Both the position numbers and the translations under genes were made by a program. The notes beneath the pieces were generated by a model. It had not been told where the DNA came from, searched no databases, and saw nothing but the letters and a program-made list of their open reading frames with translations. DNA of 64,000 nt from contig CAZFHY010000010.1 in NCBI GenBank assembly GCA_964519305.1, positions 64,001-128,000 of the forward strand, written 5' to 3'. Each line of letters starts with the position of its first letter. Position 1 is the first letter of the stretch. Source of the stretch: Candidatus Undinarchaeota archaeon. Its GTDB lineage: Archaea > SpSt-1190 > JASMDC01. Below, piece by piece: positions 20,023 through 54,981 of this stretch.

Positions 20023-20403
20023 TCAGAACCTTATCCTGAAGAGCGGGACCGCATGCGGGGCCCGGGGGTCGCTGTCCCACCTGTAGACTTCCAGGTCCAC
20101 GCCGGGCGACTCGCCCCTAGTGATATCGAGGTCCACTCCGATGCCCTCTTGTGGCATGTTGTCCATGTCGATCGTCTCGAGGTCGCTGGCATACACCGGG
20201 GCCTCGGCCTTCTCGACATAGGTGTTCGTCTCTTGCGTCATTACGCTCCCGGCCATGGCACCGACGCCCACCAGGAGACCGGCCGCAAGAGCACCTCCGG
20301 CCAGACCGTAGGTGGAAAGGTCGTCTGCCGCAGTATATCCGTCGGCCATCACCGCCGAGGCGGTTCCGGTCGTCTCAAGTTCTTCCATGTACATCATGAT
20401 CAC
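20023..20403 (-). CDS. Small membrane-anchored protein with an ELET-type acidic leader
   Basis: MYMEELETTG..ADGY..ADDL followed by a Gly/Ala TM; GGAGTGA RBS-like sequence. Confidence 0.7.
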   Translation of the reverse strand: MIMMYMEELETTGTASAVMADGYTAADDLSTYGLAGGALAAGLLVGVGAMAGSVMTQETNTYVEKAEAPVYASDLETIDMDNMPQEGIGVDLDITRGESPGVDLEVYRWDSDPRAPHAVPLFRIRF

Positions 20404-20440
20404 TCCTTTCAGTTCTTACAGTATGATATCGTTCGCGGCC

Positions 20441-20980
20441 TCATCGGATACGGAAGTCGAATCCGGGGATACGGATCCGGATGTCAACATCGCTCTGCTC
20501 GTAGGAGGGGTGGCTGTCAGGGGCCAAAGGGTCCGAACCGAACCCGAGCTCGTCCATGTCGGTGTAGCCGTCGTGATCGGTGTCGAACCAGTTCGGGTCC
20601 GTACCGAGCTCCATGACCTCAACACGGTCACTGATGCCGTCAGCGTCGGAGTCCCATTCCAACGTGCTCGTCCTGTACACACTGAGCTCCTTCGAGTCAG
20701 CGAGGCCGTCGTTGTCCGCGTCGGGTACGCCCCGGGCGTAGTCCATGCTGTCGATGAGCCCATCGCCGTCAGTGTCGGCGCTGAAGGGGTTGTTCCCGGT
20801 GACGATATCCTTGGCGGTCGAGTAGCCATCCTTGTCGAAGTCTACCGCGAGCACACCCGTGAGGGCGCCCACGGCTCCCAGGAGGGCGAGCCCCCGACCG
20901 TCCATATCGTCCGTGCTGCTGTATGCGTCGGCGGCCGATGCGCCGTAGCTTCCGTTCGTCTCAAGCTCGTATGCGATCAT
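20441..20980 (-). CDS. ELET-leader protein with Ca-binding TSP3-like (DxDxDG) repeats
   Basis: Start at ATG 20980 (MIAYELETNG); DTDGDGL, DADNDGL, DSDADGI and DTDHDGY repeats with GxDP. Confidence 0.75.
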   Translation of the reverse strand: MIAYELETNGSYGASAADAYSSTDDMDGRGLALLGAVGALTGVLAVDFDKDGYSTAKDIVTGNNPFSADTDGDGLIDSMDYARGVPDADNDGLADSKELSVYRTSTLEWDSDADGISDRVEVMELGTDPNWFDTDHDGYTDMDELGFGSDPLAPDSHPSYEQSDVDIRIRIPGFDFRIR

Positions 20981-21017
20981 GTCCGGCCCTGCCCCTTGTC
21001 CCCTTTTTATACCTTTC

Positions 21018-21049
21018 TTTGGTATACCTAATATATTGGGACTGCCTAA
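21018..21049. promoter_or_regulatory. Tandem DtxR-like operators
   Basis: TTTGG-TATA-CCTAA (21018-21031) and TTGGG-ACTG-CCTAA (21036-21049), 18 bp period. Confidence 0.6.
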
Positions 21050-21130
21050 TATATAGGGCTCTGAGCACAGCTTACCGACATACACAGTAATGTTAGGGGA
21101 TACGAATACATGCAGAGCCGATGAACGGCA

Positions 21131-22259: not shown

Positions 22260-22715
22260 ATGTTCGAAATGGAACTCGAGTCGGAAGGGTACGGTGCTAC
22301 CAACACCACGCAGGCCTATGGACAGGTGGATGACCTGAACCTCAGGGGTGCCGCCGTGGGTGCAGCTATCGGGGGTGCCGTCGGATTTGGCATGGCAGGC
22401 CTCGCCGGTTACGGCCTGGCAAACCACATCAGTGATCACTATCTTCAGGACGTCGGCCCTCTGCCGCAAGTGCTCCTTGAGGTGGACGCTACCATCGCCG
22501 GCCTCTACGTGCTCGGCGTGCCATTCGCTATCGGTGGCGCGCTGACCGCTGGTGCAGCCGGTGCTACCTCCACCCTATTCAGGGGCGAGGAGGAGGCACC
22601 TAACGATGGTGCGGCCTACGACTGGAACGGTGAGCAGGACCTCGACCGTGTCCCCCTCCGGCGCCAGGTACGGTACACGTATCCTCGCAGAGACGCGAAC
22701 GAACTGGACTGGTAA
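22260..22715 (+). CDS. Glycine-zipper membrane protein with an ELES-type acidic leader
   Basis: MFEMELESEG..QAY..DDL, then GAAVGAAIGGAVGFG and a second TM; AAGGTGA RBS. Confidence 0.72.
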   Translation: MFEMELESEGYGATNTTQAYGQVDDLNLRGAAVGAAIGGAVGFGMAGLAGYGLANHISDHYLQDVGPLPQVLLEVDATIAGLYVLGVPFAIGGALTAGAAGATSTLFRGEEEAPNDGAAYDWNGEQDLDRVPLRRQVRYTYPRRDANELDW

Positions 22716-26740: not shown

Positions 26741-28564
26741 TCAGCAGCCCTCGATGCGTGTCACGTACTCGTACCCCTTGCTCGTATGCACGGGGATGAG
26801 CGGATACATCTCAACGGGGACGTTCGTATCGCCCCGTACCCGCACGACTATACCGCGCGACCGCACCTTGTAGGCAGGACGATCGGCCGTGTCGGTCGTG
26901 GCGTGGGCAAGGAGAAGGTACGTACCTGCGTCCACCTCGGGGAACTCGTACTTACCCTCCTCGTCGGCGACCACTGTGACAACGGAGCCCGGGTAGCCGT
27001 CCAAGGGTACCATGTGGAGGCGGACGGCACGGGGCGGCACTCCGTCCACGTAGGCCAGCGTGCGCTCGCCCACTGCTTTCGTACGCCGGTCACCTGAGCA
27101 CGATATCCGGTCCTTGACGAACACGCGGCCGTGCACCCTGCCCTTGTTCCCCAGCTCCACGTCCTTTGTGAGATGGCCGGAGAGCTCTACACGCTCGATG
27201 AGACGACCAAGCCCGGGAGGACTGCTTGCCTCAACGACAAGGGTGTGCTCACCACAGGGTACCTTCGTCCGCTCCAGACGGCCTCCCTCGAATGGATGGA
27301 GACAGGTGTCCAGCCATGCCTGACCGTCAACGGGAGCGTTCCCAGGTCCGGTAACGGTGAGCTCCAGCTCGCATCCGCCGCTCCCGCACAGGTCATCCAC
27401 TGCTGGCGGGTGCTCCTGGCCGAACCGGGCATAAGGATCCACACCGGTTAAGTAGGGGTCGAGCACGAAGGCGAACTCAAGCGGTCGTCCCTCTGTCCGG
27501 ACGCCCATAGCCACCGGTCTGAGGTCCCGCAGGACCATCATAACATTGAACTGGGCGGTATAGCTCACGTTGTACCTGCTCAGGCAGATGGGCTCGTCGG
27601 CATCGCGTCGGTCGATGAACGGGAAAGGGACAGGTACGTATTCCACGTGCTTCGTGCTCTCCTGCTGGGTACCAGGATTGGCCGACAGTGTCATATCGAC
27701 ATGCTCTCGTACCATCTCCATGGACCACTCGATGTCAGGCTCGTCCTTTGCAGCGCTACGCTGTCGCTGAAGCTCCTTTGCTACCGACAGCTGTGCGTTC
27801 TCCACGAAGGGCTGGGCCATGTCGCGCTTAGTGGCGATGATACGCTGTTTGTTGCACGCCATGGTCTCGCCGATGCCACCAGGTGGGCTGGGGATACGGT
27901 CGTCGTTGATGATACCGGAAAGGAGGTTGCGTTCCATGTACCGCTCCTTCTCGTACGTCTCAAGATAGGCCTTGGCCCGGGACCAAAGGGTACGCAGACG
28001 CAGGGGAAGGGTGATGGTCATGTCCTCCACCGAACGGATCGCCTTATCGTCCCCCTGGAGGTGGTAGGTGAGCTCGAGCGTCGCCTCAACCCCCTCCTCC
28101 TGTAGCGTCGCTATGATCCGTGGCGCGCCGAAGACGACCTGGGCCTTCTCGCCCGCGCGGATCGCCTCGAGGCGCGGGACCAAGCGTCGGGTGGACTCCT
28201 GAGAGAGGAGACCCTCCATGACCTGCACCGATGGGAAGAGCACCAAACGGCCCTTCTGAAGATAGACGGGGCGTTTGTTCACCACAGGCCCCGGTAACGA
28301 GTTGGACGTGTAGCCACCGCGCCGTCCCAGCTCGTACACGGACTCCTCCACAGAGTCGCGGAGAGCGCTCTCGATGACGTCAGAAAGGTCGCGTAGGCGG
28401 TCCACGGTCGCCTTCACCTCCCCTGCCGCGGTCCGGGCCTCACGCTCGGTCTTGCTACCGCGCAGGACGAAGGAGACGATCACAAGAACGGCAATGGAGA
28501 TAGCTATGAGGCCGATGAGGCTTATCTGGGCACGCGCACGTTCCCGTACGATCCGGCCGCGCAT
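26741..28564 (-). CDS. Large pilin-like protein with a class III signal peptide
   Basis: MRGRIVRERARA-Q-ISLIGLIAISIAVLVIV (basic leader, AQ junction, hydrophobic N-terminus); ELGRRGGY helix; beta-rich C-terminus. Confidence 0.65.
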   Translation of the reverse strand: MRGRIVRERARAQISLIGLIAISIAVLVIVSFVLRGSKTEREARTAAGEVKATVDRLRDLSDVIESALRDSVEESVYELGRRGGYTSNSLPGPVVNKRPVYLQKGRLVLFPSVQVMEGLLSQESTRRLVPRLEAIRAGEKAQVVFGAPRIIATLQEEGVEATLELTYHLQGDDKAIRSVEDMTITLPLRLRTLWSRAKAYLETYEKERYMERNLLSGIINDDRIPSPPGGIGETMACNKQRIIATKRDMAQPFVENAQLSVAKELQRQRSAAKDEPDIEWSMEMVREHVDMTLSANPGTQQESTKHVEYVPVPFPFIDRRDADEPICLSRYNVSYTAQFNVMMVLRDLRPVAMGVRTEGRPLEFAFVLDPYLTGVDPYARFGQEHPPAVDDLCGSGGCELELTVTGPGNAPVDGQAWLDTCLHPFEGGRLERTKVPCGEHTLVVEASSPPGLGRLIERVELSGHLTKDVELGNKGRVHGRVFVKDRISCSGDRRTKAVGERTLAYVDGVPPRAVRLHMVPLDGYPGSVVTVVADEEGKYEFPEVDAGTYLLLAHATTDTADRPAYKVRSRGIVVRVRGDTNVPVEMYPLIPVHTSKGYEYVTRIEGC

Positions 28565-31401
28565 CAGCAAACCACCCCCTCAAGATTGCGCCAGTTACCC
28601 GGATTACCGGAGAGCTGGACCCGTGTCGTGTCCGAGGTCTCGTCCCCGGTGTTATCGCGGACCGTCACCACCACATCGAGCGGCATGGCATGCTCGGGTG
28701 TCGGACAAAGGCGGATGGCTGACAGGTGGAGACGGACTCCGACACTGGTGCGATAAACGAAAGCGACGGTGTCGCTCACGTCATGCGCACCCACCCTGAC
28801 GGAGAAGCTATCCTTGTCGATCGTCTCTCCGCCCTCGAGGTCCATCAGGACGTCCATATCGAACCCGAGCCCCGCCAGGAGCAGGAATAGTGGCCGCTCC
28901 TTGGTCCCCGGCTCCACGCTCAGGATGCGCATGGACAAGGGGACGTGCTCAAGCACTTCCAGCTGGGTCCGGGCCTGACCGGTCCGTCCGAGGTGGTTCA
29001 CCGCAAGTGTCAGGTGGTCCGCCTCCGTGCTCTCCCCATGGAGGTACACGACAACGGTCCAGGTGCCGGTGTGCCGGTCATAGGTGGCCGAGGTCACGTC
29101 CGCCCGAACTGTACTATCGCCACCGCCCAGGTGCGCGGTCATGGCCGAGACGGGTACGTACGGGATATCCTTGTCACCGGTGTCGGTTATGCGCAGACCG
29201 AGACGCACAGTGGCCCCATGCTCCACCGATGCTCGCGATAACCTGCGCGGTGCCACCGAGATCACCTCGATGTCCATCTCGCTCTGCTCCAGGGGGTACC
29301 ATACCTCGAACGGCCTGCGGACGAGGTGCATATCGTCACCGACATTGAGCATGAGGAACGCGTCGTAACGTCCCGGTGCGAGCGTGTGGTTGAAGGCCGT
29401 GGTGAAGGTCCACTCGTTGACGCTTCCGTCGAAGGAGATTCCTGGCGGAGGCCCGCCCGTGCCGCCCAGGAAGCTAGACGCTTCCAGCTCCTCGTGGACG
29501 CGCTTGTCGGCCACGCGATCGTCCATCTTCACGACCCCGGTCCAGGTCAAGGCCACACCATCGCCCATGTCATTGGTGCGCACGTGGATGGGTTTGAAGT
29601 CCTTGACCTCGAAGGTGAAATCCGGTAGCTGGCATCCGGCGAGAGTGCACACCTGACCCGCGGTACATGGGGAGAGCGCCTGGTCCGACGGATCGAGGCA
29701 CACGCACGTGCCTGAGCAGATCTCGCCCACCTCCACGCACGAGAGGGTCTCCACTCCCCGCTTGGCCACGCAGGCACCGCGGGTCCGGACGACCGTGAAC
29801 GGCGATGTCGAGGCAGAGGGGGATGAACATGCAGTGGCGCTCCCTGGCATCGGGAGGCAGGTGTCCTGATATTCGCACACGTCCCGCGGCATACCGTTCT
29901 CATCGAAGCATAGGCAGAGAGGGAAGGCGGAAGACGTGGGATGGCAGGTCATCCGGGGGCCGATGCATGGGATACTGGTGTCGAGCACGGGAAGGGAGCC
30001 TCCGAAGCAAAGGTCGGAGTGCACGGAATCCTGCCTAGGTCGCCAATCCACAATCTCGAACGTCTTGATACCGGTGGCGACCTTCTCACCACCCTGGTAG
30101 ACCTCCATCTCGACCTCGTACATCCCAGGATCTAGCTCCTCCTCAAGTTCGAGGTCGGCGGGCTCGCAGCCGCCGGAGCTCGTCCGGGTCACGATGTTGC
30201 CATCGCTGTCGGTGATAGTGACTTCGCACAGCTCACCTTCTCCGGTGGGGAACACGGCGAGGTTCTCTCCCGGCGAGTACACATCCTTGTCCGTCGTGAT
30301 CTCGACAGTCCCCTCTCCCGTCTCGGCGAAGGTGAACGTTGCTGTACCCGTGCTCGTCGAATCGCCCCGGGTGGCACGTGCGCGGACCAGGTAGTCGCCG
30401 GGGACCAGCCCGGCCGTGCCCAACCGGACATTGTCGCACGAGGCGAGGTCGAGCTCATCCCATCGATGCCCCTCCAGGTCGAGCACGGTAACCTCGCACC
30501 GGTCTACATCACCATCGACGGACAGGTCGACCTCGAAGGACGAACCGGTGACCGTGGTACTGCCGACGTCCACTGAGACCGTCAGGTCCGCACGGGTGGA
30601 TTCCAGAGGTGTGCGCGCGGTGGATATCCGGGGCAGGTCGCCCCATGTGTCAATCGCGATCAATACCAGCTCGGCCCCTTCCTCGACAAGGAGCCCTGTC
30701 GTCGGGAGCACGAAGGGATCACAGGCCGGTGAGACCGCGCTCAGCGCAGGGCGCGCCTCTCCCGATTGCATGATGGCGGCGATGCAGAGCGATCCCTGGA
30801 GACGGGGGATGTTGAACGCGTCGCCGATGACGAGCGCACCAGCGAGCTCCTTTACTGAGGAAGGGATGTCCAGCGGGTTGTTCTTGCCTGATACAGTGAA
30901 GGTGGAGAGGGTGGGCGAATCGCGCACGTCCTCGACGACCGCGCGGTAGGCCGGATAGCGGATCGAGAGCTCGCGTTTCTGAGCAAGCATCCCGGGAGCG
31001 AGGGTGAACTGTCGGGACCGGTACTCGTGGGAGAGCCGGACGCGGACACCATCTTCGCCCCATACGTCCTCCCAGCCGATCTCCTCGATGCCGAAGGCTG
31101 GCTCATCGTTCACCGTGAAGATGATCCTGCCCGTTGAAGTATCACGCCAGGGTTTGCAGTCCGCAGCCGGAGCAGCGATACGGCACCGCGTCTGCAGGTC
31201 GGCGTCCGTCAGTGCAGCAGCTGCGGTCGGCTCGAGGTTGAAGGTGATGATGGCGGTCTGTCCATCGAGCGACGCGAAGTCCACTTCCTCCGTCACCGAT
31301 GAGGAGATGATGGCCATCACAGGCACGGATACGAGCAGGAGCGTAACGAGCAGTGGAAGGAAAGGGAAATTCATCCGGTCCTTCTTCGCAGGAGGCACCA
31401 T
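28564..31401 (-). CDS. Large secreted Ig-like / Cys-rich protein
   Basis: Start ATG 31401 fits the TTTTATAA box at about 31427-31434; Sec-type signal; TTDKDVYSPGE Ig-like motif; central Cys-rich block. Confidence 0.75.
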   Translation of the reverse strand: MVPPAKKDRMNFPFLPLLVTLLLVSVPVMAIISSSVTEEVDFASLDGQTAIITFNLEPTAAAALTDADLQTRCRIAAPAADCKPWRDTSTGRIIFTVNDEPAFGIEEIGWEDVWGEDGVRVRLSHEYRSRQFTLAPGMLAQKRELSIRYPAYRAVVEDVRDSPTLSTFTVSGKNNPLDIPSSVKELAGALVIGDAFNIPRLQGSLCIAAIMQSGEARPALSAVSPACDPFVLPTTGLLVEEGAELVLIAIDTWGDLPRISTARTPLESTRADLTVSVDVGSTTVTGSSFEVDLSVDGDVDRCEVTVLDLEGHRWDELDLASCDNVRLGTAGLVPGDYLVRARATRGDSTSTGTATFTFAETGEGTVEITTDKDVYSPGENLAVFPTGEGELCEVTITDSDGNIVTRTSSGGCEPADLELEEELDPGMYEVEMEVYQGGEKVATGIKTFEIVDWRPRQDSVHSDLCFGGSLPVLDTSIPCIGPRMTCHPTSSAFPLCLCFDENGMPRDVCEYQDTCLPMPGSATACSSPSASTSPFTVVRTRGACVAKRGVETLSCVEVGEICSGTCVCLDPSDQALSPCTAGQVCTLAGCQLPDFTFEVKDFKPIHVRTNDMGDGVALTWTGVVKMDDRVADKRVHEELEASSFLGGTGGPPPGISFDGSVNEWTFTTAFNHTLAPGRYDAFLMLNVGDDMHLVRRPFEVWYPLEQSEMDIEVISVAPRRLSRASVEHGATVRLGLRITDTGDKDIPYVPVSAMTAHLGGGDSTVRADVTSATYDRHTGTWTVVVYLHGESTEADHLTLAVNHLGRTGQARTQLEVLEHVPLSMRILSVEPGTKERPLFLLLAGLGFDMDVLMDLEGGETIDKDSFSVRVGAHDVSDTVAFVYRTSVGVRLHLSAIRLCPTPEHAMPLDVVVTVRDNTGDETSDTTRVQLSGNPGNWRNLEGVVC

Positions 31402-31500
31402 CCGCCCATCACCACCGCGCATTCCTTTATAAAACGAAGGAGAGAGAACGCACGTCGGCCCCCCCTCTCCGTGTCCCCCTTCATCGTTAACCATTCATCA

Positions 31501-35457: not shown

Positions 35458-35460
35458 CGA

Positions 35461-41103: not shown

Positions 41104-41128
41104 TTTCACCACGCTTCCAGTACACTAT

Positions 41129-42813: not shown

Positions 42814-42979
42814 GGTTGTCACCTTCAGTTCTTGTTCACGTTCAGCAAGTTCTCTACGAACCGTGCTGCCTCTGAAACGGCAGCGATACCGCTGTAGAGA
42901 ATACCTAGCCCGATAATCTTGGAGCGTCGCCCCGTCAACTTTGGACAATACATTTCTACGCGCTTCATGGCCGTCACCT

Positions 42980-44092: not shown

Positions 44093-44122
44093 TAGGTCTG
44101 CCTAAGCTTAAGGGTCACCTAA
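44092..44122. promoter_or_regulatory. Tandem DtxR-like operators
   Basis: Perfect TTAGG-TCTG-CCTAA (44092-44105) and TAAGG-GTCA-CCTAA (44109-44122), spanning from the start codon to the TATA. Confidence 0.72.
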
Positions 44123-44310
44123 TAAATGTTTCCTTTCTCCCAAGAGAAGCTACCATTAAAGCTAACAGGTGACCAAATTGTGGCCTGGGGCGGCGGCCGG
44201 GCATGGCATGCCCAGGTGACGTGGTGGCCACCGGCCCCAGACCTATGGTGTCCCCCATGGGGACAATCCCCTATCCTGTTCTCCTTTCTACTGTTCCTGA
44301 CTGTAGCGAT

Positions 44311-45093
44311 TCACGCCACGAGGGCCTTCTCGAGATCGTCGATGATGGCCTCTTTCCTTTCCCGTTCGCGCCAGAGACTGTTGAGCTGTCGTTCGCGGGC
44401 CGCTTCGCCCACGACGGGCAGCTTGGTGAGCGTGGATTCATCGATGCGCTCACGGGTTTCGGTCATCGTGTCGTCGAGCTTGGATCGCAGCGCCGTATAG
44501 GTGTCTGCACTGGTGAGGTCGAACACATCCGTGGTGTTCCCCCTCCTGTTAGCATAACCCTCAAGATGGTCGATGAGGTCGAAGAGGACCTGTTCCTGAC
44601 CGGCGAACTGGAGAGCAAGCCGTACGCGTTCCGTGTGCGCAAGACCATCGAGGGTCTCGGTGATGGTCTCGGGGAGCGCACCGTACTCGGCTACGTTGAA
44701 CGAGTGGTCGTCCGTGTAACGCGTCCCGATGTAGTGGTCTGTGCTGACGTCCTTGGTCACCAGGTTCCGCGTCTCGATGACCTCGTACCGCGAACATAGT
44801 AGTCCGCTCACGAGATCACTGTCGAACCGGGCTTGGAGCCCCAGCTCGGCGGCCCGCTCCTCGACCTCGACCAACGTCCGCTCAGCATCGTCCTTGGTCT
44901 GACCATAGACGTGGACCTCTTCACAATAGCTCCCGTCGCTCCACAGCTCGTGGATCTCGGTGAAGTGGTAGTTAGTCCTCAGACGGTTCTCGTACGCGAC
45001 CTCGGCACCGACGGCGCCAAGGAACTCGCAGGTCCCGGGGCTCACTTGCCCTTCGTAGGGCATGGTCACCCTCTCTTCGTTCTCGATTATCAT
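44311..45093 (-). CDS. Hypothetical acidic protein with a C-terminal coiled coil
   Basis: Own TATA plus operators; coding-like codon use; no family recognised. Confidence 0.7.
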   Translation of the reverse strand: MIIENEERVTMPYEGQVSPGTCEFLGAVGAEVAYENRLRTNYHFTEIHELWSDGSYCEEVHVYGQTKDDAERTLVEVEERAAELGLQARFDSDLVSGLLCSRYEVIETRNLVTKDVSTDHYIGTRYTDDHSFNVAEYGALPETITETLDGLAHTERVRLALQFAGQEQVLFDLIDHLEGYANRRGNTTDVFDLTSADTYTALRSKLDDTMTETRERIDESTLTKLPVVGEAARERQLNSLWRERERKEAIIDDLEKALVA

Positions 45094-45094
45094 T

Positions 45095-45126
45095 TTAGAC
45101 GCGCCTAAACGTTTAGGTCGTCCTTA
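45095..45126. promoter_or_regulatory. Tandem DtxR-like operators
   Basis: TTAGA-CGCG-CCTAA (45095-45108) and TTAGG-TCGT-CCTTA (45113-45126), 18 bp period, between the start and the TATA. Confidence 0.7.
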
Positions 45127-45182
45127 AATAAGTTCCCTTGGTTACTGAGCGAACTATATTATTGGGGGGAATTGACCCTTTC

Positions 45183-46481
45183 TCACACGTCCTTGAGCCG
45201 TGCCGAGAAGGAGGAGTCCTCGCCCGAGATGTTAGTGACCACCAGCCAGAGGACCCCGTCCTCGGCGATGTCGATGTCCGTCACACCACCATCGAAGGAG
45301 TCGGCCACGAGGGTTGGCCCCGAAGGCGCCACGACGCCAGCGCGCAACCGGAGCCTTCCGGGGGCAGGGCTCTCCACCCGCACCGTGTCCCCCGCAGTGA
45401 CGCTGGTCTTCATGAACGACATCCCACCACGACCGGACACGTCGACATAGGTACTCGCAGAGAGCCCGGTCGCCGTCACCTCGCCGAGATTGAGCCGCTC
45501 GAACCCGTACACGCCTCCATCGAACGAGGTGTCGTTCACCGCGATGGCCAAGCCCAGGTCAGCGTACACGGTGTCGAGGTCGAGCGTAGGATCGATATCC
45601 CCGAGACGTGCGTCCAGCGAATCCTTCCCATGCAGCGGATCGGCCGTGATCTCCTTGACGAAGCCGTTCCCGAACCGCTCCCAGAGGTAGTCGCCGAAGA
45701 GCATATAGAGACCGTAGTGCCCCTGCCCGATTTGATCGGGGATGAGCGGATGGGACGGGTCGCGCAACCATGCGTCGACCCACTTCTCGTCCGCACCATA
45801 CCCGGTGACCACCATCGCCACCTCGCTCATGGCCTCGTTTAGCCAGCTCTCCTCCTCCGCGTCGTGGCCCCAGTGGATGAGGTGCTGTAGCTCATGGGCC
45901 TGTACTGAGAGCATGTAGTCCGAGTCGGGAGCGTAATGGAGCGTGTTGATATGGAGGGTCTCGTGACGGTTGGACACGGGGACGTCGAGCTGGTCCTCGA
46001 CCTTGAAGTAGCCGTCGAACCCGTGCCCGTTGTACGATCCCATCTCGTACAGGAACAGGTATACCTTCGGATCGTTGTCGAACTCATCCGGTGGATCCCC
46101 GAACAGTCCGGTGACCTGGTCGTAGATACCACGCTCGGGATCAGAGGGCGTTCCCTCGTCCCATGCCTTGATGAGATTGTCCACCGTTCTCTCATCGACG
46201 GAGTGGCCCCAGGCCGCGTCCTCGACGACGACGTAGACGTTCCTCCCCTCACCGCGGACGCTGGCCGCGATCTGCTTGTCCCGGGGAGGCATCACCGAGA
46301 GGTCCCACACCCACCACATATCGTTGGCAGGAGCGTACGGTCCAGAAGGTGTCACACCGCGGTCATCATAGGCCGGAGGGTACTGACAGAAGGGCCGGTG
46401 GGCCGCTCCATATTCCGGGATCGGGTCCCCTGGCTCTGGAACGTACTCCACGACCTCGTCAACGGGACCTGTGTCCTCCAT
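45183..46481 (-). CDS. Zinc metalloprotease (M30/M6-like)
   Basis: FGDPP.FDND.KV, GYF, AHELQHLIH and WLNEAMSE; start ATG 46481 or GTG 46493. Confidence 0.78.
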   Translation of the reverse strand: MEDTGPVDEVVEYVPEPGDPIPEYGAAHRPFCQYPPAYDDRGVTPSGPYAPANDMWWVWDLSVMPPRDKQIAASVRGEGRNVYVVVEDAAWGHSVDERTVDNLIKAWDEGTPSDPERGIYDQVTGLFGDPPDEFDNDPKVYLFLYEMGSYNGHGFDGYFKVEDQLDVPVSNRHETLHINTLHYAPDSDYMLSVQAHELQHLIHWGHDAEEESWLNEAMSEVAMVVTGYGADEKWVDAWLRDPSHPLIPDQIGQGHYGLYMLFGDYLWERFGNGFVKEITADPLHGKDSLDARLGDIDPTLDLDTVYADLGLAIAVNDTSFDGGVYGFERLNLGEVTATGLSASTYVDVSGRGGMSFMKTSVTAGDTVRVESPAPGRLRLRAGVVAPSGPTLVADSFDGGVTDIDIAEDGVLWLVVTNISGEDSSFSARLKDV

Positions 46482-46489
46482 CGGACCGC

Positions 46490-48037
46490 TCACTGGTTGC
46501 CCTGCTGCGACTGCAGGTAGATCTGGAGCCACAGAGGGATCTCGAAGGCCTCCTCGATGGTGGGGTTCCGCTTCTGCATGAGCTCATCCCACGAGGTGTC
46601 CTCAGCGAATCCTGTCTTCTCATACAGCTCCTTGTAGTGATCGTACTCCCGCTGCACGCTGGGGACGTAGATGTGGAGCCCCGTCGCAGTCCCATGGGAC
46701 TGGGCGTTGTGCTGCTCGGCGACGACCACCTGTCCGATGGACTCGAGCACCTTGTTGGCAGCATCGCGCACCGCGGGTTCGTACTTCTCGTTAGCAGCGA
46801 GCCGCTCGGCCAGGTCACCCAGGTCCACTAGAGGCTCCGGGAAACCGAGAAGAGGATGGGTACCGAAATGGAGGCTGGCGTCGTTGGCCTTGTTGAACTC
46901 CTCCATGGGGACCTTGGATTCGAGAAGAGCATCGGCCAGTCCGTCCACGGCCTCGGCCACCTTGGGCATCTTGCCCACTTCGGTGGCGGAAAGGGTCCTG
47001 AGGTTCTGCTGGTCGTTCTCGGCCTCCTTTACTATAAGGTAGCTCATCAGCTTGGGCGAGAGCTCGGGGCGCTGCCCGTCCTTGAACGCCTTGGAGTACT
47101 TCTCCATGACCACGAGCGCACGGTTGCCCATGATACCCTCGTAGGGCCAGCCTTCGGCGCCCTCCAGCTCCTCGCTGGCCACCAGGAAGTCGGTGACGCT
47201 CCGTACCTGGTAGGCACCCTCGGTTGAGGCCATCAGGCACGCATCGTACCCGAGCACGTCGATCTTGACGCCCGTCTTCTGCTTGACCTTGCCCAGGGCC
47301 TCCTGGACCTGTGCCCAGGTCATGGAATCGCTACCCGCAGAGTCGTCGGTGATGGAGCCTGTCCAGCCCATACCGTGGTCCGAGATGACGACCATGTAGT
47401 TCTTCGCGGGGAAGTTCTGGACGCCCCACTCCACGAAGTCCTGAAGGTTGGCGGGATCGGCCATGTCGATCTGACCTAGCTCGCCCAGAACTGGGGAGTT
47501 GAGCTCGCCCTTCGTAGCATCCTTCTGGAGGTGGTAGCGCCGGGCGCCGGTCCAAGCCCGCTTCGCCATGTCCGTCTTGCCCTCGGCCTTCTCGCCGCGG
47601 TCGAGCTGAACGACCACGTCCGCGTTGTCGGTGGAACCGATCTTCTCCATATCGTCCACGTCGGCGACCTGATAGGCCTCGAGGTTGTTGTCGGCAGCGG
47701 AGTAGACCAGGATGGTCCATTCCTTGCCTTCGGCCTGGTCGTCCTGGGCAGCATAATTGAGCGGGATGGAGGACGGGAGGGTGACCTGGTAATCGCCCAT
47801 ATCGATGACGTTGCCCTGCTTGGTCTGCTCGGTCTCGATGACGTACGCCGGCTGGGGGTCCGTGCCGGGAGGCGGGAGCGTGTTGGGGAGCATGCCGCCA
47901 CCGATGCCGACAATAGCACCACCGATGGTGGCTACAAGTCCAAGTCCTGCGGCGGCGTAGGTGGCCACCTGCTTGGTAGTAAGCCCCTCTTCCTTCTCGT
48001 TCGCTTCCGGTTCAGGTTCCTGCTCGACGTACATCAT
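46490..48037 (-). CDS. Clostripain-family (C11) cysteine peptidase 2
   Basis: WTILVYSAADNNL, SDHGMGW, GYDACLM; GGAGG RBS. Confidence 0.9.
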   Translation of the reverse strand: MMYVEQEPEPEANEKEEGLTTKQVATYAAAGLGLVATIGGAIVGIGGGMLPNTLPPPGTDPQPAYVIETEQTKQGNVIDMGDYQVTLPSSIPLNYAAQDDQAEGKEWTILVYSAADNNLEAYQVADVDDMEKIGSTDNADVVVQLDRGEKAEGKTDMAKRAWTGARRYHLQKDATKGELNSPVLGELGQIDMADPANLQDFVEWGVQNFPAKNYMVVISDHGMGWTGSITDDSAGSDSMTWAQVQEALGKVKQKTGVKIDVLGYDACLMASTEGAYQVRSVTDFLVASEELEGAEGWPYEGIMGNRALVVMEKYSKAFKDGQRPELSPKLMSYLIVKEAENDQQNLRTLSATEVGKMPKVAEAVDGLADALLESKVPMEEFNKANDASLHFGTHPLLGFPEPLVDLGDLAERLAANEKYEPAVRDAANKVLESIGQVVVAEQHNAQSHGTATGLHIYVPSVQREYDHYKELYEKTGFAEDTSWDELMQKRNPTIEEAFEIPLWLQIYLQSQQGNQ

Positions 48038-48045
48038 TATCCCTC

Positions 48046-49527
48046 CTACTGGTCTCCCTTACTCTGATTCGCCCGCTCCTGGAGGAACTCGTCCCACTGG
48101 GTGTCCTCTGCGAAGTCGAGCTCACCGTACCTCTCACCCTCGAAGGAGTACTTGCCCTCGAAGGGCACGTAGATGTGCAGACCATGGGCGTTGGGATGAG
48201 TGGCCTCGTTGTTCTGCTCGGCGACGACGACCTGGTCAACGGCCTCGATGACCTTTGCCGCGGCCTCGCGCACATCAGCGCCGTAGGCGTCATTGGCAGA
48301 TACCTTCTCGGCCAGTTCTACTGCGTCCACGAGCGGCTCCACGGACCACCACTGCCTCCCGAAGTGGAAGGATTCCTCGGCGATCTGGTTGAACTCGCTT
48401 ATTGGTACCTTGGACCCTCGCAGGGCCTCGGCGAACCCGTCCATGGCCTCGGCGACCTTGGGCATCTTCTCGACCTCGACGGCAGAGAGGGTGGGTAGGT
48501 TCCGCTGGTCGTTCTCGGCCTCCTTGACGATGAGGAAGCTCATCAGCTTGGGTGTGAGCTCTGGGCGCTTTCCATCCTTGAAGGCCGTAGAGAACTTCTC
48601 CATGACCACAAGGGCGCGGTTGCCCATGATGCCCTCGTATGGCCAGCCCTCGGCGCCCTCAAGCTCCTGGCTCGCCACCAGGTAGTCCGTCACGGACCGG
48701 ACCTGGTAGGCGCCCTCGGCAGATGCCATGAGGCATGCATCGTACCCGAGAACGTCGATCTTCGCACCGGTCTTCTGCATGACCTTGCCCAGGGCTTCCT
48801 GGACCTCGACCCATGTCATCTCGTGGTCCCCGGAGGAGTCGTCCCCGATGGCACCAGTCCATCCGGCGCCGTGGTCCGAGATGACGAGCATGTAGTTCTT
48901 GGCCGGGTAGTTCTGGACACCCCACTCGAGGAAGTCCGCCAGCACATCGGGATCGGCCATGTTGACCTGCCCGAGCTCGCCCATCATGGGGGAGTTGAGC
49001 TTCCCTTTCTCGGCGTCCTTCTGGAGGTGGTAGCGCCGGGCACCGGTCCAGGCCCTCTCTCCCGAGTCGACCTGACCCTCGGCGACCGTGCCGCGGTCGA
49101 CCTGGACCACGACGTCCACGTACTTGTCCGAACCGACCGTCTCCATGTCGTCGTTGTCGGCCATGAGATAGGGCTCGAGGTTGTTGTCGGCGGCCGAGTA
49201 GACGAGGATGGTCCACTCCTTGCCCTGTGTTCGGGCGTCCTCTGCCGCGTAGTTCAGCGGGATGGACGAGGGGAGGGTGACTGAGTAGTTACCCATGTCG
49301 ATGACGTTCCCCTGTGTGCTCTGCTCGGTCTCGGTCACATAGGCCGGTCTCGGGGTCGTGCCCGGGGGCGGCTGGAACGGAGGTAGGATATTTATGGCGC
49401 CACCGATGGCGGCCACGAGGCCCAGGCCCACAGCGCTGTAGGTAGCTACCTGCTTGAGCGTGAGCCCTTCCTCTTCTTCTCGTTCCGGTACTTCATCATT
49501 CTCGTTCTCGATGTACATCATGATCAC
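48046..49527 (-). CDS. Clostripain-family (C11) cysteine peptidase 3
   Basis: SDHGAGW and GYDACLM; close paralogue of peptidase 2 in the catalytic domain. Confidence 0.9.
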   Translation of the reverse strand: MIMMYIENENDEVPEREEEEGLTLKQVATYSAVGLGLVAAIGGAINILPPFQPPPGTTPRPAYVTETEQSTQGNVIDMGNYSVTLPSSIPLNYAAEDARTQGKEWTILVYSAADNNLEPYLMADNDDMETVGSDKYVDVVVQVDRGTVAEGQVDSGERAWTGARRYHLQKDAEKGKLNSPMMGELGQVNMADPDVLADFLEWGVQNYPAKNYMLVISDHGAGWTGAIGDDSSGDHEMTWVEVQEALGKVMQKTGAKIDVLGYDACLMASAEGAYQVRSVTDYLVASQELEGAEGWPYEGIMGNRALVVMEKFSTAFKDGKRPELTPKLMSFLIVKEAENDQRNLPTLSAVEVEKMPKVAEAMDGFAEALRGSKVPISEFNQIAEESFHFGRQWWSVEPLVDAVELAEKVSANDAYGADVREAAAKVIEAVDQVVVAEQNNEATHPNAHGLHIYVPFEGKYSFEGERYGELDFAEDTQWDEFLQERANQSKGDQ

Positions 49528-50787
49528 CTATTGAACATCACTGACCCGACGGGGTCTGCTTCATCTTCTCTGCTCGGTCCTTGAGCCACTCGTCCCACTG
49601 GGTGTCCTCGGCGAACTCCATCTGCTCGTACGCCTCACCGTCGTAGGATCCTGCCCACCAGCTCGACGGTACGTAGATGTGCAGCCCGTGGGAACCGGGA
49701 TGGCTCGAGTTGTGGTGCTCGGCCACGATCGCCTGGTCAACGGCCTCGATGACCTTGTTGGCAGCGAGCTTCACGTCCTTGCCGTACTGCTCGTTGGCAG
49801 CAAGGTTCTTTGCCAGGTCGACCACGTCCACCAGGGGCGATCCCCAGCCGTAATCCTGGCTGTTGCCCTCCACGGTGTTGAACTCGGTAACGGGTACCTC
49901 GGACGCGCGCAGCGCCTCGGCCAGCCCGTTCACGGCTGATGCCACCTTGGGCATCTTCTCGAGCTCTGTTGAGGAGAGCGTGTCGAAAGTGGCGGTATCG
50001 TTAGCGCCTTCCTTGACTATTAGATAGGAGTAGAGCTTGGGCGAGAGCGCGGGGCGGTCAGCGTCCTTGAAGGAGCGGTTGAACTTCTCCATGACGTCCA
50101 GGGCCCGCTGGCTGATGATGCCCTCGAAGGGCCAGCCCTCGACGCCCTCCAGCTCCTCGCTGGCCACCAGGAACCCGGCCGCGTCGCGGACCTGGTAGGC
50201 TACCTCGGTCGAGCCCATGAGGCACGCGTCGAAGCCGAGGATGTCGATCTGTGCGCCGGTGCGCTCCTTGACCTGCTCGAGCGCCTGGTCGAGCTCCGGC
50301 GTGGACATCTGTCCTGCGTGGTGTGAGCTGTCGTCGATGAAGCCCTCCCAGCCCGAACCATGGTCGGCGATGATGAGCATGTAGTGCTTGGCAGGGAAGT
50401 TGTTGACGGTGAACTCCACGAACTCCGCCAGTGTCTCAGGAGCGGCCATGTCCACCTGTCCGAGCTCCTCCAGCACCGGTGAGTTGTAGTTGATAGGGTC
50501 CGTGTCCTTCTGGATGTGATAGCGCCGGGCACCGGTCCAGTCACCGCCTTGCGGTGTGTCGGCGGTGTAACCGCGGTCCACCTGGACCACGATGTCCATG
50601 TAGTCGTTGGACCCCAGCTTCTCCATGTCGTTGATGTCGGTGAGCTGGTCGTTCTCGAGGTTGTTGTCAGAGGCGGAGTAGATCATGACGGTCCATTCCT
50701 TGGCCTCGGAGGGAACCCGGGCATCCTCGCCATACACAAGGGGGATGTCCTCGGGCAGGGTGACCTGGTATTCGCCCATGTCGATGG
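49215..50787. repeat. Copy 1 of a ~1.57 kb direct duplication
   Basis: Matches about 52130-53700 at an offset of 2913 bp across most of its length, including the intergenic CTATTGAACA (49528/52441). Confidence 0.85.
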
Positions 50788-50956
50788 CATCGGGACCGGT
50801 GACGGTCCCCTGCTGGTGGACGTAGGCGGGCTGCACCGGCGCGGCGCCCATGACTGGCGCCATCACGCCGCCGACGGCCGAGAGCACGCCCGCTGCAAGA
50901 GCGGCGTAGCCCGCGACCTTCCCGACAGGTGCTCCGTCACCGTCGGCCTCCTCCAT
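49538..50956 (-). CDS. Clostripain-family (C11) cysteine peptidase 4
   Basis: ADHGSGW and GFDACLM; start ATG 50956 (MEEADGDG) next to the upstream stop. Confidence 0.9.
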   Translation of the reverse strand: MEEADGDGAPVGKVAGYAALAAGVLSAVGGVMAPVMGAAPVQPAYVHQQGTVTGPDAIDMGEYQVTLPEDIPLVYGEDARVPSEAKEWTVMIYSASDNNLENDQLTDINDMEKLGSNDYMDIVVQVDRGYTADTPQGGDWTGARRYHIQKDTDPINYNSPVLEELGQVDMAAPETLAEFVEFTVNNFPAKHYMLIIADHGSGWEGFIDDSSHHAGQMSTPELDQALEQVKERTGAQIDILGFDACLMGSTEVAYQVRDAAGFLVASEELEGVEGWPFEGIISQRALDVMEKFNRSFKDADRPALSPKLYSYLIVKEGANDTATFDTLSSTELEKMPKVASAVNGLAEALRASEVPVTEFNTVEGNSQDYGWGSPLVDVVDLAKNLAANEQYGKDVKLAANKVIEAVDQAIVAEHHNSSHPGSHGLHIYVPSSWWAGSYDGEAYEQMEFAEDTQWDEWLKDRAEKMKQTPSGQ

Positions 50957-50957
50957 C

Positions 50958-52430
50958 CTAGGTACCCCCGTCCCGCTCGTTGGTCTCGGCCACCGCCCGC
51001 TCCACGAGCTCGTCCCAGTGGGTGTCCCGGGCGAACGCAGTGGCGCGGTACTCGTCACCATACTTCCCGAACACCCGATCGTCGAACGTGAGGAACACCT
51101 GCAGCCCGTGCGCGTCCCGGTTCTCCTCGTTGTGCTGCTCCGCGACGACCGTCTTCGCGAGTGCGTCGAGCACGCCCCGGGCAGCGTCCCGGACCACCTC
51201 GTCGCCGGCGTACGCGTCGCTTGCGAGAATCCTCTCAGCGAGGTCGCCCGTGTCCACGACCACGCCGTTGGCGTACCACCATAAGGTGTTGTCCCCCACC
51301 TCCTCGAACGTGCTCATGGACACGCCCGATGCATCGAGCGCCCTGGCGAGCGAGTCCATCGCCTCGACCACGTCGGGCATCCCGGACAGCTCGACCGCGG
51401 ACAGTGTCTCGATCACGTCCTGATGACGCTCGGCCTCGCTCACGATGAGGTACGACATGATCCGTGGTGTGAGCTCGGGCCGCTCGCCGTCCTTGAACGC
51501 ATCGGTGAACCTCTTGCCGACCCCCACGGCGGCTCTTCCAAGGAACCCGTCGTAGGACCAGCCGTCCGCCCACTCGACCGCCTCGCTGGCCACCATGTAG
51601 TCTGCCGAGCCACGCAGCCGGTACGCGACCTCGGTGGAGGCCATGAGGCACATGTCGAACCCGAGGACGTCGATTTTCACGCCCGTCCTCTCCTTCACCA
51701 CCGCCAGTGCTTCCTGCATCTGCGCCGGCGTCATCAGGGTCGACCCGCTGGCCGAGTAGTCCACTATGGCACCGTGCCAGCCGAGGCCGTGGTCGTGGAT
51801 GACGAGCAGGTAGTGCTCGGCGGGGAAGCTCGAGAGGCCCCAGGTGACGAAGTCCGCGAGCGTCGCCGGGTCGGCCATATCGACCTGCCCGAGCTCGGCC
51901 AGCACCGGCGACGTGATACCCACCTCGCCGTCGTCCCTCTGGAGGCGGTACCGCCGGGCGCCGGTCCACTCGCCGTGCCCCTCGGCCACAGCATCGGCCT
52001 CCACGCCCCGGTCCATCTGGACGACGACGTCCATGTACTCGCTGGAGCCCACGCTCTCCATCTCGTCGATGTTGTCCATCAGGTAGTGCTCCAGATCGTT
52101 GTCTCCTGCGGCGTAGACGAGCACGGTCCACTCCTTGCCCTCGGCCCTTTCGCCGTCTGCTTCATAGTTCAGCGGGATGGACGAGGGGAGGGTGACAGAA
52201 TAGTTGCCCATGTCGATGACGTTCCCCTGGGTGCTCTGCTCGACCTCAGTCACATAGGCCGGCTGCGGGGTAGTGCCCGGGGGCGGCTGTACTGGCGGGA
52301 GGATGCTTAAGGCGCCGCCGATGGCGGCCACAAGTCCTAGGCCAGCTGCACCGTAGGTCGCGACCTGTTTGAGCGTGAGTCCTTCCTCTTCTCGTTCCGG
52401 CGTTTCATCCTGCTCGTTCTCGATATACAG
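50958..52430 (-). CDS. Clostripain-family (C11) cysteine peptidase 5 (CTG start or start-proximal frameshift)
   Basis: HDHGLGW and GFDMCLM; the frame is open to CTG 52430 (LYIENEQDE..), while ATG 52434 is out of frame. Confidence 0.82.
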   Translation of the reverse strand: MYIENEQDETPEREEEGLTLKQVATYGAAGLGLVAAIGGALSILPPVQPPPGTTPQPAYVTEVEQSTQGNVIDMGNYSVTLPSSIPLNYEADGERAEGKEWTVLVYAAGDNDLEHYLMDNIDEMESVGSSEYMDVVVQMDRGVEADAVAEGHGEWTGARRYRLQRDDGEVGITSPVLAELGQVDMADPATLADFVTWGLSSFPAEHYLLVIHDHGLGWHGAIVDYSASGSTLMTPAQMQEALAVVKERTGVKIDVLGFDMCLMASTEVAYRLRGSADYMVASEAVEWADGWSYDGFLGRAAVGVGKRFTDAFKDGERPELTPRIMSYLIVSEAERHQDVIETLSAVELSGMPDVVEAMDSLARALDASGVSMSTFEEVGDNTLWWYANGVVVDTGDLAERILASDAYAGDEVVRDAARGVLDALAKTVVAEQHNEENRDAHGLQVFLTFDDRVFGKYGDEYRATAFARDTHWDELVERAVAETNERDGGT

Positions 52431-53700
52431 TCATAATCACCTATTGAACATCACTGACCCGACGGGGTCTGCTTCATCTTCTCTACTCGGTCCTTGAGCC
52501 ACTCGTCCCACTGGGTGTCCTCGGCGAACTCCATCTGCTCGTACGCCTCGCCGTCGTAGGACCCTGCCCAATAGCTCGACGGGACGTAGATGTGCAGCCC
52601 ATGGGAACCGGGATGGCTCGAGTTGTGGTGCTCGGCCACGATCGCCTGGTCTACGGCCTCGATCACCTTGTTGGCCGCGAGCTTCACGTCCTTACCGTAC
52701 TGCTCGTTGGCAGCAAGGTTCTTTGCCAGGTCCACCACGTCCACCAGGGGCGAGCCCCAGCCGTAGTCCTGGCTGTTGCCCTCCACTGTGTTGAACTCGG
52801 TGACGGGTACCTCGGACGCACGCAGCGCCTCGGCTAGCCCGTTCACGGCTGATGCCACCTTGGGCATCTTCTCAAGTTCAGTGGAGGAAAGGGTGTCGAA
52901 GGTGGCGGTATCGTTGGCGCCCTCCTTGACGATTAAGTAGGAGTATAGCTTGGGCGTGAGCGCGGGACGGTCGGCGTCCTTGAACGATTGGTTGAACTTC
53001 TCCATGACGTCCAGGGCCCGCTGGCTGATGATGCCCTCGAAGGGCCAGCCCTCGACGCCCTCCAGCTCCTCGCTGGCCACCAGGAACCCGGCCGCGTCGC
53101 GGACCTGGTAGGCTACCTCGGTCGAGCCCATGAGGCACGCGTCGAAGCCGAGGATGTCGATCTGTGCGCCGGTGCGCTCCTTGACCTGCTCGAGCGCCTG
53201 GTCGAGCTCCGGCGTGGACATCTGTCCTGCGTGGTGTGAGCTGTCGTCGATGAAGCCCTCCCAGCCCGAACCATGGTCGGCGATGATGAGCATGTAGTGC
53301 TTGGCAGGGAAGTTGTTGACGGTGAACTCCACGAACTCCGCCAGTGTCTCCGGGGCGGCCATGTCCACCTGTCCCAGTTCCGCCAGGATTGGTGAGTTGT
53401 AGTTGATGGGATCCGTGTCCTTCTGGATCAGATAGCGTCGGGCGCCGGTCCAGTCGCCGCCCTGAGGCGTGTCAGCGGTGTAGCCGCGGTCCACCTGGAC
53501 CACTATGTCCATGTAGTCGTTGGATCCCAGTTTCTCCATGTCGTTGATATCGGTGAGCTGGTCGTTCTCGAGGTTGTTGTCCGACGCGGAGTAGATCATG
53601 ATGGTCCATTCCTTGGCCTCGGAGGGCACGCGGGCATCCTCGCCGTAAACGAGGGGGATGTCCTCGGGCAGGGTGACCTGGTATTCGCCCATGTCGATGG
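52130..53700. repeat. Copy 2 of the ~1.57 kb direct duplication
   Basis: See 49215-50787. Confidence 0.85.
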
Positions 53701-53923
53701 TACGGGACTTGACGACATCCTGGGCCTCCGTGATGAAGGCGGGCCTGTGAGGCCCGGTCCCCGGAGCGGGCGCGGTATCGCCGGGACCCGCGGTGACGCC
53801 GATGGCGCCGCCCACGGCTGCAGCGAGGCCGAGGCCCAGTGCGACATACCCGCCGACCTTCTTGAGGGTGAGCCCTTCCTTCTCGTTCTCCAAGTCAGTT
53901 TCGTACTCTACGTCCATGATCAT
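52451..53923 (-). CDS. Clostripain-family (C11) cysteine peptidase 6
   Basis: Near-identical to peptidase 4 from IDMGEYQ onward; start overlaps the upstream stop (TGATG). Confidence 0.9.
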   Translation of the reverse strand: MIMDVEYETDLENEKEGLTLKKVGGYVALGLGLAAAVGGAIGVTAGPGDTAPAPGTGPHRPAFITEAQDVVKSRTIDMGEYQVTLPEDIPLVYGEDARVPSEAKEWTIMIYSASDNNLENDQLTDINDMEKLGSNDYMDIVVQVDRGYTADTPQGGDWTGARRYLIQKDTDPINYNSPILAELGQVDMAAPETLAEFVEFTVNNFPAKHYMLIIADHGSGWEGFIDDSSHHAGQMSTPELDQALEQVKERTGAQIDILGFDACLMGSTEVAYQVRDAAGFLVASEELEGVEGWPFEGIISQRALDVMEKFNQSFKDADRPALTPKLYSYLIVKEGANDTATFDTLSSTELEKMPKVASAVNGLAEALRASEVPVTEFNTVEGNSQDYGWGSPLVDVVDLAKNLAANEQYGKDVKLAANKVIEAVDQAIVAEHHNSSHPGSHGLHIYVPSSYWAGSYDGEAYEQMEFAEDTQWDEWLKDRVEKMKQTPSGQ

Positions 53924-54981
53924 CACTCCCACTCTACCCAGTCAGGGTTGTAGGTGCCCAGGGGCAGGTCGTCCCCGAACATCGATTGTGGTGAATATCC
54001 TAGTTGAGAATAAGCGACATCCCGGGGGATGAGCAGGTCGCGAACGTTGTTATCGGTGAGATAGGCCTTGCCGTCGATGATGGTCTCGGTCCAGGCATGA
54101 CCTCCGCCCTTCATCGTCCCGAGCACGACCACCGAATCGTATCCCTTGGCCTCGAGCAGTGAGTTCGATGCGAGCGCGTAGTCCTCGCAGTCGCCCCGGG
54201 AGAGGCCTGTGAGGAAGTGATCAGGGTTCTGCCAGTAATCGGTGTGACCTAGATGATCGGCGTCGAAGAAGTACTTCCCCATGAGCGGATTGCCGTCGGC
54301 GAACCGCATGAACTTGATACCGGATATGTTGTTCCCACCGATGTTGATCGCGGCGGGATAGTCGCGGACCTCGAGGTTGTTGGCGAAACCCTGGACCACC
54401 TCGTTGTCCGGTGTGATGTAGGACGAGGGATTATTGGGCATGTAGAAGCCCCGCTGCTCGCCGATCTCCTGGTGCCGGAGCGAGGGGAAGCCGTCGGGGA
54501 TCCCGTCGCTGTTGGCGTCGGGATTATCAGGGTGAAGGTCGTAGCCGTCAGCGAGCCCGTCGCCGTCCCGATCGAGGACCATGAAGTCGGGATCCTTGCC
54601 GTCGATGATACCGTCAGCGTCCACGTCGGGATTGGACCAGTCCCAGTCCCTACCGTCGAGGATACCGTCCCCGTCGATGTCGGGATTACCGGGATGAGGG
54701 TCGATGGAATCGTAGAGGTGGTCGCCGTCAGCGTCCGCCATGGCCTGCTCGGGGGAGAGCGTGGGAACGCTGTCGTCGCCCAGCACACGGGCCTTGGGCG
54801 GACCGGGTTCGGCCTCTTTGCCGAGCAGTGCACCGAGGACGAGCCCACCGGTGATTGTGAGTCCGACCGCGATGAAGCCCTTGGCCACCGACTCGGCGTT
54901 CAGGTCCTCGGTGACCATGTAGCCGTCGGCCGCCGTGGCGGTCCCGGCATCATCGGTCTCGAGGTCGATGTCCATAGCCAT
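53923..54981 (-). CDS. DLET-leader protein with TSP3-like Ca-binding repeats and a C-terminal transglutaminase-like Cys peptidase
   Basis: DADGD, DIDGDG, DVDADG and DRDGDG repeats; WQNP..RGDCEDYA, GHAW, D. Confidence 0.8.
   Translation of the reverse strand: MAMDIDLETDDAGTATAADGYMVTEDLNAESVAKGFIAVGLTITGGLVLGALLGKEAEPGPPKARVLGDDSVPTLSPEQAMADADGDHLYDSIDPHPGNPDIDGDGILDGRDWDWSNPDVDADGIIDGKDPDFMVLDRDGDGLADGYDLHPDNPDANSDGIPDGFPSLRHQEIGEQRGFYMPNNPSSYITPDNEVVQGFANNLEVRDYPAAINIGGNNISGIKFMRFADGNPLMGKYFFDADHLGHTDYWQNPDHFLTGLSRGDCEDYALASNSLLEAKGYDSVVVLGTMKGGGHAWTETIIDGKAYLTDNNVRDLLIPRDVAYSQLGYSPQSMFGDDLPLGTYNPDWVEWE

Follow-up and report, generated by a model that had tools for sequence, protein, structure and literature searches.

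Bacteria sort subsets of their surface proteins through conserved motifs in the N-terminal part of the signal peptide, among them the ESPR, YSIRK and accessory-Sec motifs. In Gram-positive bacteria, the motif of YSIRK-G/S signal peptides marks one such subset for a particular secretion site, and to our knowledge no conserved sorting motif in this part of the signal peptide has been described for archaea. In diderm bacteria, autotransporters and proteins of two-partner secretion carry the ESPR (extended signal peptide region), a conserved N-terminal extension of about 25 residues placed before differing passengers (PMC2805444). Signal peptides of the GspB type, which belong to serine-rich adhesins, join a long conserved N-region to a glycine-containing hydrophobic core, and the glycines of that core select the accessory Sec route (PMC5578698). 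Here we analysed a 64,000-nucleotide stretch from an uncultured marine Candidatus Undinarchaeota archaeon (contig CAZFHY010000010.1, positions 64,001 to 128,000 of the forward strand, GenBank assembly GCA_964519305.1; hereafter the window), in which four otherwise different proteins begin with an acidic leader followed by a hydrophobic helix rich in glycine and alanine. We found that the leader belongs to a family restricted to one genus. We tentatively favour the view that leader and helix form an N-terminal module, in which the acidic leader is kept inside the cell, the helix is inserted with its N-terminal end inside, the passenger lies outside and the leader is read as a recognition tag.

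The preliminary description of the window had pointed to these four N-termini, to a spacing of key residues identical in all four, and to acidic residues where the n-region of a Sec signal is basic. The N-termini lie where it had placed them and match one another without gaps over some 27 residues, 23-residue segments taken from them align without gaps, and the L, the Y and the D-[LM] share columns in that alignment. It had further proposed a distinct conserved leader common to otherwise unrelated proteins, a proposal that was to fall if a profile search of the genome and its relatives found no further members and the four alignments did not rise above shuffled sequence. A profile built from the four segments alone matched 11 open reading frames (ORFs) at E < 1e-3 among the 51,117 six-frame ORFs of the genome, and 0, 0 and 0 in three residue-shuffled copies. 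A regular-expression scan of the genome gave 13 motif matches, 12 of them at ORF N-termini. Iterated profiles converged on 34 ORFs (E from 1e-18 to 2.4e-9), 30 more than the window had supplied; the first ORF below them (E = 1.2e-4) matched in the hydrophobic part only, which leaves a clean gap. Every one of the 34 leaders contains 5-10 D/E, and K/R are absent from 22 of them, in agreement with the acidic character first noted. In all 34 members the leader stands at the start of the ORF, with the start codon (ATG in 30, GTG in 3, TTG in 1) a few codons upstream of the match. The window holds exactly four members, a fifth lies on the same contig just beyond the window end, and tandem arrangement is frequent (9 clusters of 2-3 genes). 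By eye, the DNA upstream of the leader genes carries ordinary TATA-like boxes, and no additional shared motif was seen there. Eight DNA sequencing runs from 2 studies contain the stretch and may be the data from which it was assembled, and no RNA run was listed as containing it.

Whole-genome searches gave 34 copies of the leader in the genome under study (G000) and 28 in its sister species (G001), the only other species of the genus, in both cases at the N-terminus. They returned none from the phylum's 15 remaining genomes and none from 24 additional archaea. When 1.84 billion protein representatives were searched with a profile, 38 matched, of which 3 were false (internal repeats) and 35 matched at the N-terminus; the 19 of these 35 that were inspected were all orthologues or close kin of known members, apparently from the same genus. 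Pfam gave no family at E ≤ 0.01 on any of the 34 leaders, NCBIfam, against which 15 of the 34 members were scanned, no match at the N-terminus, the Protein Data Bank no match to the leader profile at E ≤ 1, and the ESM Atlas no usable match. Our literature search found no description of the leader and no acidic signal-peptide motif for archaea. These results show that the leader family is real, sizeable and lineage-restricted, and that it is larger than the four proteins first noted. The host genome measures 3.63 Mb in 42 contigs and is 99.8% complete, and the 15 other sampled species of the phylum have 0.6-1.2 Mb. Its markers are those of an archaeon, with L15e present, bacterial L20 absent and a single SecY. 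The L15e match contains one in-frame TGA in both genomes (G000 contig C11, 122485-123036, minus strand; G001 contig C33, 49338-49889, plus strand), which could reflect an alignment overrun, recoding or an interruption. A preprint on DPANN archaea of oxygen-deficient zones reports metagenome-assembled genomes of about 4 Mb from a phylum-level group that may be this lineage, and signals are not mentioned in the portion of it that covers these genomes (PMC10634959).

The leaders are 25-34 residues long and follow the approximate motif M-Y-D-[ILM]-D-L-E-T-x-G-Y-x2-A-x2-A-D-G-Y-x3-D-D-L. In the 62 leaders that the two species have between them, conservation is strongest at D (62/62), L (61/62), L or M (61/62), D/E (61/62) and Y (53/62). 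M-Y-D at the start, T/S, G-Y and A-D-G are weaker, the columns beside the strong positions vary freely, and those between D-D-L and the helix hold only about 1 bit. The conserved L lies exactly 19 residues ahead of the invariant D in 32 of the 34 members and the Y lies 5 residues ahead of it in 28; the L falls at residue 5-9 in 31, which ties the motif to the initiator Met. The paralogues are only about 27% to 40% identical, yet a small number of positions in the leader hardly vary and keep their spacing, and this near-invariance, together with the lock to the initiator Met, is typical of a motif that something reads. AlphaFold2, run on the 62-row alignment, left residues 1-28 without secondary structure (pLDDT about 60) and predicted a helix from residue 29 to residue 53. 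A leader predicted to be unstructured would fit a linear motif rather than a domain.

The four window members and their parts are as follows.

20023-20397, minus strand: member 1, probable coding sequence of 124 amino acids from the ATG at 20397; leader, one Gly/Ala helix and a tail of about 70 amino acids closed by an R-rich beta-like motif, with no Pfam or NCBIfam family
20317-20397, minus strand: member 1 leader, residues 1-27; 0 K/R, 6 D/E
20233-20316, minus strand: member 1 Gly/Ala-rich hydrophobic helix, residues 28-55
20441-20980, minus strand: member 2, probable coding sequence of 179 amino acids; leader, helix, bacterial-type TSP3 calcium-binding repeats (TSP3_bac, 2.4e-8) and R-rich C-terminal motif
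20903-20980, minus strand: member 2 leader, residues 1-26; 0 K/R, 5 D/E
20843-20893, minus strand: member 2 hydrophobic helix, residues 30-46, with G-R-G just before it
22260-22715, plus strand: member 3, probable coding sequence of 151 amino acids; leader, helix 1, short loop, helix 2 and R-rich C-terminal tail
22260-22337, plus strand: member 3 leader, residues 1-26; 0 K/R, 6 D/E
22347-22433, plus strand: member 3 Gly/Ala helix 1, residues 30-58; G+A fraction 0.59
22488-22580, plus strand: member 3 second hydrophobic segment, residues 77-107; the tail after it contains six Arg
53923-54981, minus strand: member 4, probable coding sequence of 352 amino acids; leader, helix, Asp-rich TSP3-like repeats and a transglutaminase-like cysteine-protease core (Pfam Transglut_core, 3.9e-5, above cut-off); its start and the stop of the gene upstream (54981-56015, minus strand) overlap
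54901-54981, minus strand: member 4 leader, residues 1-27; 0 K/R, 8 D/E; residues 1-28 predicted without secondary structure by AlphaFold2
54820-54879, minus strand: member 4 hydrophobic helix, residues 35-54, with K-G before it; AlphaFold2 helix at 29-53

An uncharged hydrophobic segment (score ≥ 0.9), such as the h-region of a Sec signal would provide, starts at residue 27-39 in all 34 members. It follows the leader after a gap of 1-9 residues, and in some members a single K/R lies in the short linker directly before it. The G+A fraction of this helix averages 0.45, versus 0.23-0.27 for 602 other N-terminal hydrophobic segments from a crude gene set, and is 0.04-0.29 in five of the six ordinary signal peptides of the window. 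The best 12-residue hydrophobicity is 2.09 in the members and 2.79 in the other N-terminal segments, a comparison that covers 21 of the 34 members and whose p value (5e-8) is overstated, since paralogues do not count as independent data. A general rule that acidic N-tails go with Gly/Ala helices was rejected: non-members with acidic residues upstream had a G+A fraction of 0.27, versus 0.24 for those with the most basic upstream region. Cleavage-type signatures were seen only after the hydrophobic helix, where two families have a lipobox and several members have small-x-small motifs; no sign was seen of the processing after D-D-L that the preliminary description had suggested looking for. One family has the lipobox at the helix end in both species, and one further family has it in G001 only. 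Lgt and LspA (PF01790, PF01252) were found in neither of the two genomes, as in other archaea, and lipobox processing here would need some archaeal enzyme other than these. The window also encodes the lipoprotein ApbE, which has an ordinary basic lipobox signal. R-R precedes the helix in one member only, so the family does not carry the twin-arginine signal of the Tat route; TatC is present in one copy.

The passengers are mutually unrelated, with Pfam matches to TSP3, Transglut_core, LOR/Scramblase-like, DUF4347 and helical repeats, or with no match; many are small domains. TSP3 repeats and LapG/BTLCP-like or transglutaminase-like proteases are normally extracytoplasmic. A further hydrophobic segment is present in 13 of the 34 members, and by a fixed rule the last hydrophobic segment is followed by at least 2 K/R within 12 residues in 6 of the 34, with three more identified by eye. 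Under the positive-inside rule, a second helix with a basic C-tail would put both termini in the cytoplasm and the middle outside, and six or more members have the appearance of hairpin membrane proteins that stay uncleaved. On the grounds of these second helices with basic C-tails, the two lipobox families and passengers that are usually extracytoplasmic, we place the leader in the cytoplasm, an orientation that we judge to be quite probable from these features. The TSP3-bearing members also have an extreme C-terminal motif in common, in which Arg and hydrophobic residues alternate around P-G. It was found in the window at 20441-20485 and 20023-20050 (both minus strand) and in G000 contig C12 at 69367-70809; a strict form of the pattern occurs in only 3 ORFs of the genome, and member 1 has a looser form.

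Like the ESPR, the leader is a conserved N-terminal stretch shared by proteins with different passengers, and like the GspB-type signals it puts a long conserved N-region before a glycine-containing hydrophobic core. It has no sequence relation to the ESPR (Pfam, 34 members), which is bacterial and is not acidic; the ESPR precedes a complete signal peptide, whereas the leader takes the place of the basic n-region and many members look uncleaved. The YSIRK-G/S motif, like the leader, is a conserved motif in the N-terminal part, but the two differ in sequence, in charge and in domain of life, and the leader is known from sequence alone. The basic KxYKxGKxW motif of accessory-Sec signals is absent here (NCBIfam, 15 of 34 members; it is not visible in the alignment). 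SecA, in contrast, is present in this lineage, with two copies in G000. With only one SecY, a single SecA in G001 and no conserved adjacency, the two genomes do not show a dedicated SecA2/SecY2 pair (the Asp proteins were not searched for). The leader family would, by analogy, be functionally comparable to the conserved signal-peptide extensions of bacteria, while unrelated to them in sequence and opposite in charge.

Considering these features together, we propose that the module stands in for the short basic n-region and the h-region found in ordinary signal peptides and signal anchors. The leader would stay in the cytoplasm, the helix would span the membrane with its N-terminal end inside and the variable passenger would be placed outside. 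The conserved L, Y, Y and D-D-L in an otherwise free acidic peptide would most likely be a linear recognition tag. A factor in the cytoplasm would read this tag, either before the protein enters the membrane or as it does so, and would thereby select the route, the time or the place. In a subset of members the whole module may be removed after the helix, at lipobox or small-x-small sites, and in the others it would stay as an anchor. A precedent in favour of the proposal is that residues which destabilise the helix of the hydrophobic domain shift proteins towards post-translational targeting (PMC6098224). Several observations weigh against it. A topology marker, either a second helix with a basic tail or a lipobox, is available in a minority of members only, and by the positive-inside rule an N-tail without positive charge is translocated rather than retained. 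In segments rich in Gly and Ala, chance alone is expected to produce small-x-small motifs. Extra constraint on the leader between orthologues of the two species was rejected, as identity is 80.3% in the leader, 81.5% in the helix and 80.9% in the rest. Across the 19 member neighbourhoods, no single gene family was shared by more than 3, and no reader of the tag was found. The C39 peptidase (PF03412) is present in neither of the two genomes, which counts against a dedicated reader.

The conserved residues could instead serve the anchor itself, through helix packing, glycine-zipper oligomerisation or charge balance against the basic C-tails, with one ancestral leader and helix spread by gene duplication and shuffling of passenger domains. 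No reader would then be involved. This is unlikely, in our view, but it accounts for the tandem clusters, for the confinement of the family to one genus, for a leader whose rate of change between orthologues is no lower than that of the remaining protein and for the lack of a recurrent partner gene. At least two other families in the same genome, the clostripain paralogues beside member 4 and a third small family, also join an N-terminal tail to a Gly/Ala-rich helix. It accounts less readily for paralogues so divergent that nevertheless keep a few leader positions at fixed spacing while their neighbours are free, and for a motif locked to the initiator Met.

Charge alone would favour the opposite orientation, in which the acidic leader is translocated to form a short extracellular peptide, perhaps cation-binding, and the rest of the single-helix members stays in the cytoplasm. 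The Pf3 coat protein, a small YidC-type substrate with an acidic N-tail, is an example of such insertion. The N-terminal end is, by charge, the more translocatable side: all leaders are rich in D/E and most are free of K/R, and among the 30 of 34 members covered, a first helix was identified in 28, of which 21 have 1-3 K/R within the 15 residues that follow it. This orientation, however, would put the basic tails that follow second helices outside the cell, would turn the lipoboxes after helix 1 towards the cytoplasm and would leave TSP3 and LapG/BTLCP-like passengers in the cytoplasm. K/R also occur in 12 of the 34 leaders, and many members have K/R in the linker just before the helix. We regard it as rather improbable.

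More doubtful still is a prepilin-like (class III) signal, in which an A24 prepilin peptidase would cleave at the cytoplasmic face, after D-D-L but ahead of the helix, and the mature protein would start with the helix. As in archaeal class III signals, the leader stands directly before a hydrophobic helix, and candidate enzymes are present, with four Peptidase_A24 matches above cut-off in each of the two genomes (in G000, C2:158777, C15:21050, C5:36048 and C5:1472). Four such matches are more than is known for most archaea. An ordinary class III-like signal also exists in the window, on a protein of 609 amino acids, and K/R-G or x-G stands right before the helix in several members (K-G then F in member 4, R-G in members 2 and 3). 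A G in this position is, however, expected by chance given the glycine content, and the residue before the helix is not conserved, leaving no recognisable -1/-2 site. The length and the acidity of the leader also set it apart from archaeal class III leaders, which are short and basic, and the passengers are enzymes, repeats or hairpin membrane proteins rather than pilin-like.

In the least probable of the readings to which we give any weight, the leader and its helix of low hydrophobicity would address proteins to a post-translational export route that only this lineage has, driven by a horizontally acquired SecA. Tagged proteins would escape the signal recognition particle and pass to SecA. 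A full-length bacterial-type SecA (821 amino acids; all four SecA Pfam domains match, SecA_DEAD at 7e-120) is encoded in the window at 16857-19322 (minus strand), immediately downstream of members 2 and 1, from which a CpeT-like gene separates it. The second SecA of G000, 62% identical to it, is on the small contig C36 (3038-5539, plus strand); G001 has one SecA, and each of the two genomes has one SecY. Searches of the 15 other genomes of the phylum gave nothing for SecA beyond weak helicase-type matches. The nearest relatives of the window SecA are 92% identical (in a metagenome-assembled genome labelled archaeal) and 63% identical, followed by bacterial SecAs at 53% or less. The SEC-C zinc motif is absent from its Pfam matches and from the domain lists of its two closest relatives. 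SecA is not known to be used by archaea, and weakly hydrophobic or helix-breaking cores lead to post-translational SecA-dependent export in bacteria (PMC6098224). A 2018 review states that no substitute for SecA is known in archaea. The link between leader and SecA is one of co-occurrence, in a lineage with thousands of private genes, and it finds no support: the adjacency is not kept, as in G001 a cluster of genes for proteins of 609, 951 and 1840 amino acids, and not leader genes, follows SecA. Charge compensation in SecA was also considered and dropped, since the net charge of the preprotein-binding region (226-375), -5 to -7, shows no shift from the mean in bacteria, -4.5; single columns hinted at basic gains around residues 200-300, which domain-wise charge did not bear out. 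If this reading were true, an archaeon would have rebuilt a bacterial-style SecA pathway with its own signal of inverted charge. Finally, a double-glycine or bacteriocin-type leader exported by a peptidase-containing ABC transporter was rejected, as the C39 peptidase was found in neither genome.

The window also encodes four large exported proteins of 609, 976, 1318 and 1883 amino acids (26741-41112, minus strand). The 609-residue protein is the one with the class III-like signal and the 1883-residue protein has a Peptidase_M23 domain; the genes for the 609-, 976- and 1883-residue proteins have counterparts of like size, in the same order, directly beside SecA in G001.

Two further groups with N-terminal tails are present in the window. 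Six tandem clostripain (Peptidase_C11) paralogues lie at 41299-53932 (minus strand), and in at least three of them an initial acidic tail with E-G-L-T-x-K-[QK] leads into a Gly/Ala helix and then a Pro-rich linker; this group is probably the first leader family to which the preliminary description counted the present one as second. The gene upstream of member 4 (54981-56015, minus strand) encodes 344 amino acids with a similar acidic tail and Gly/Ala helix, and the clostripain paralogues, member 4 and this gene form one long same-strand array. The third small family has an N-terminal G-G-Y ... K-x-K ... H-Y ... Y pattern and then a Gly/Ala helix, and was found in the window at 12945-13571 (plus strand) and in G000 at 48492-49199 of contig C16 and 857-1591 of contig C29.

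About thirty proteins per genome of this genus thus bear a tag whose charge is inverted relative to bacterial sorting motifs. If the tag is read by a machine, as we tentatively propose, it would give the full substrate list of that machine from sequence, and archaeal post-translational export could be put to a direct test. Should it prove to be no more than an inherited anchor, the tag would still be a clean marker of a lineage-specific surface proteome.

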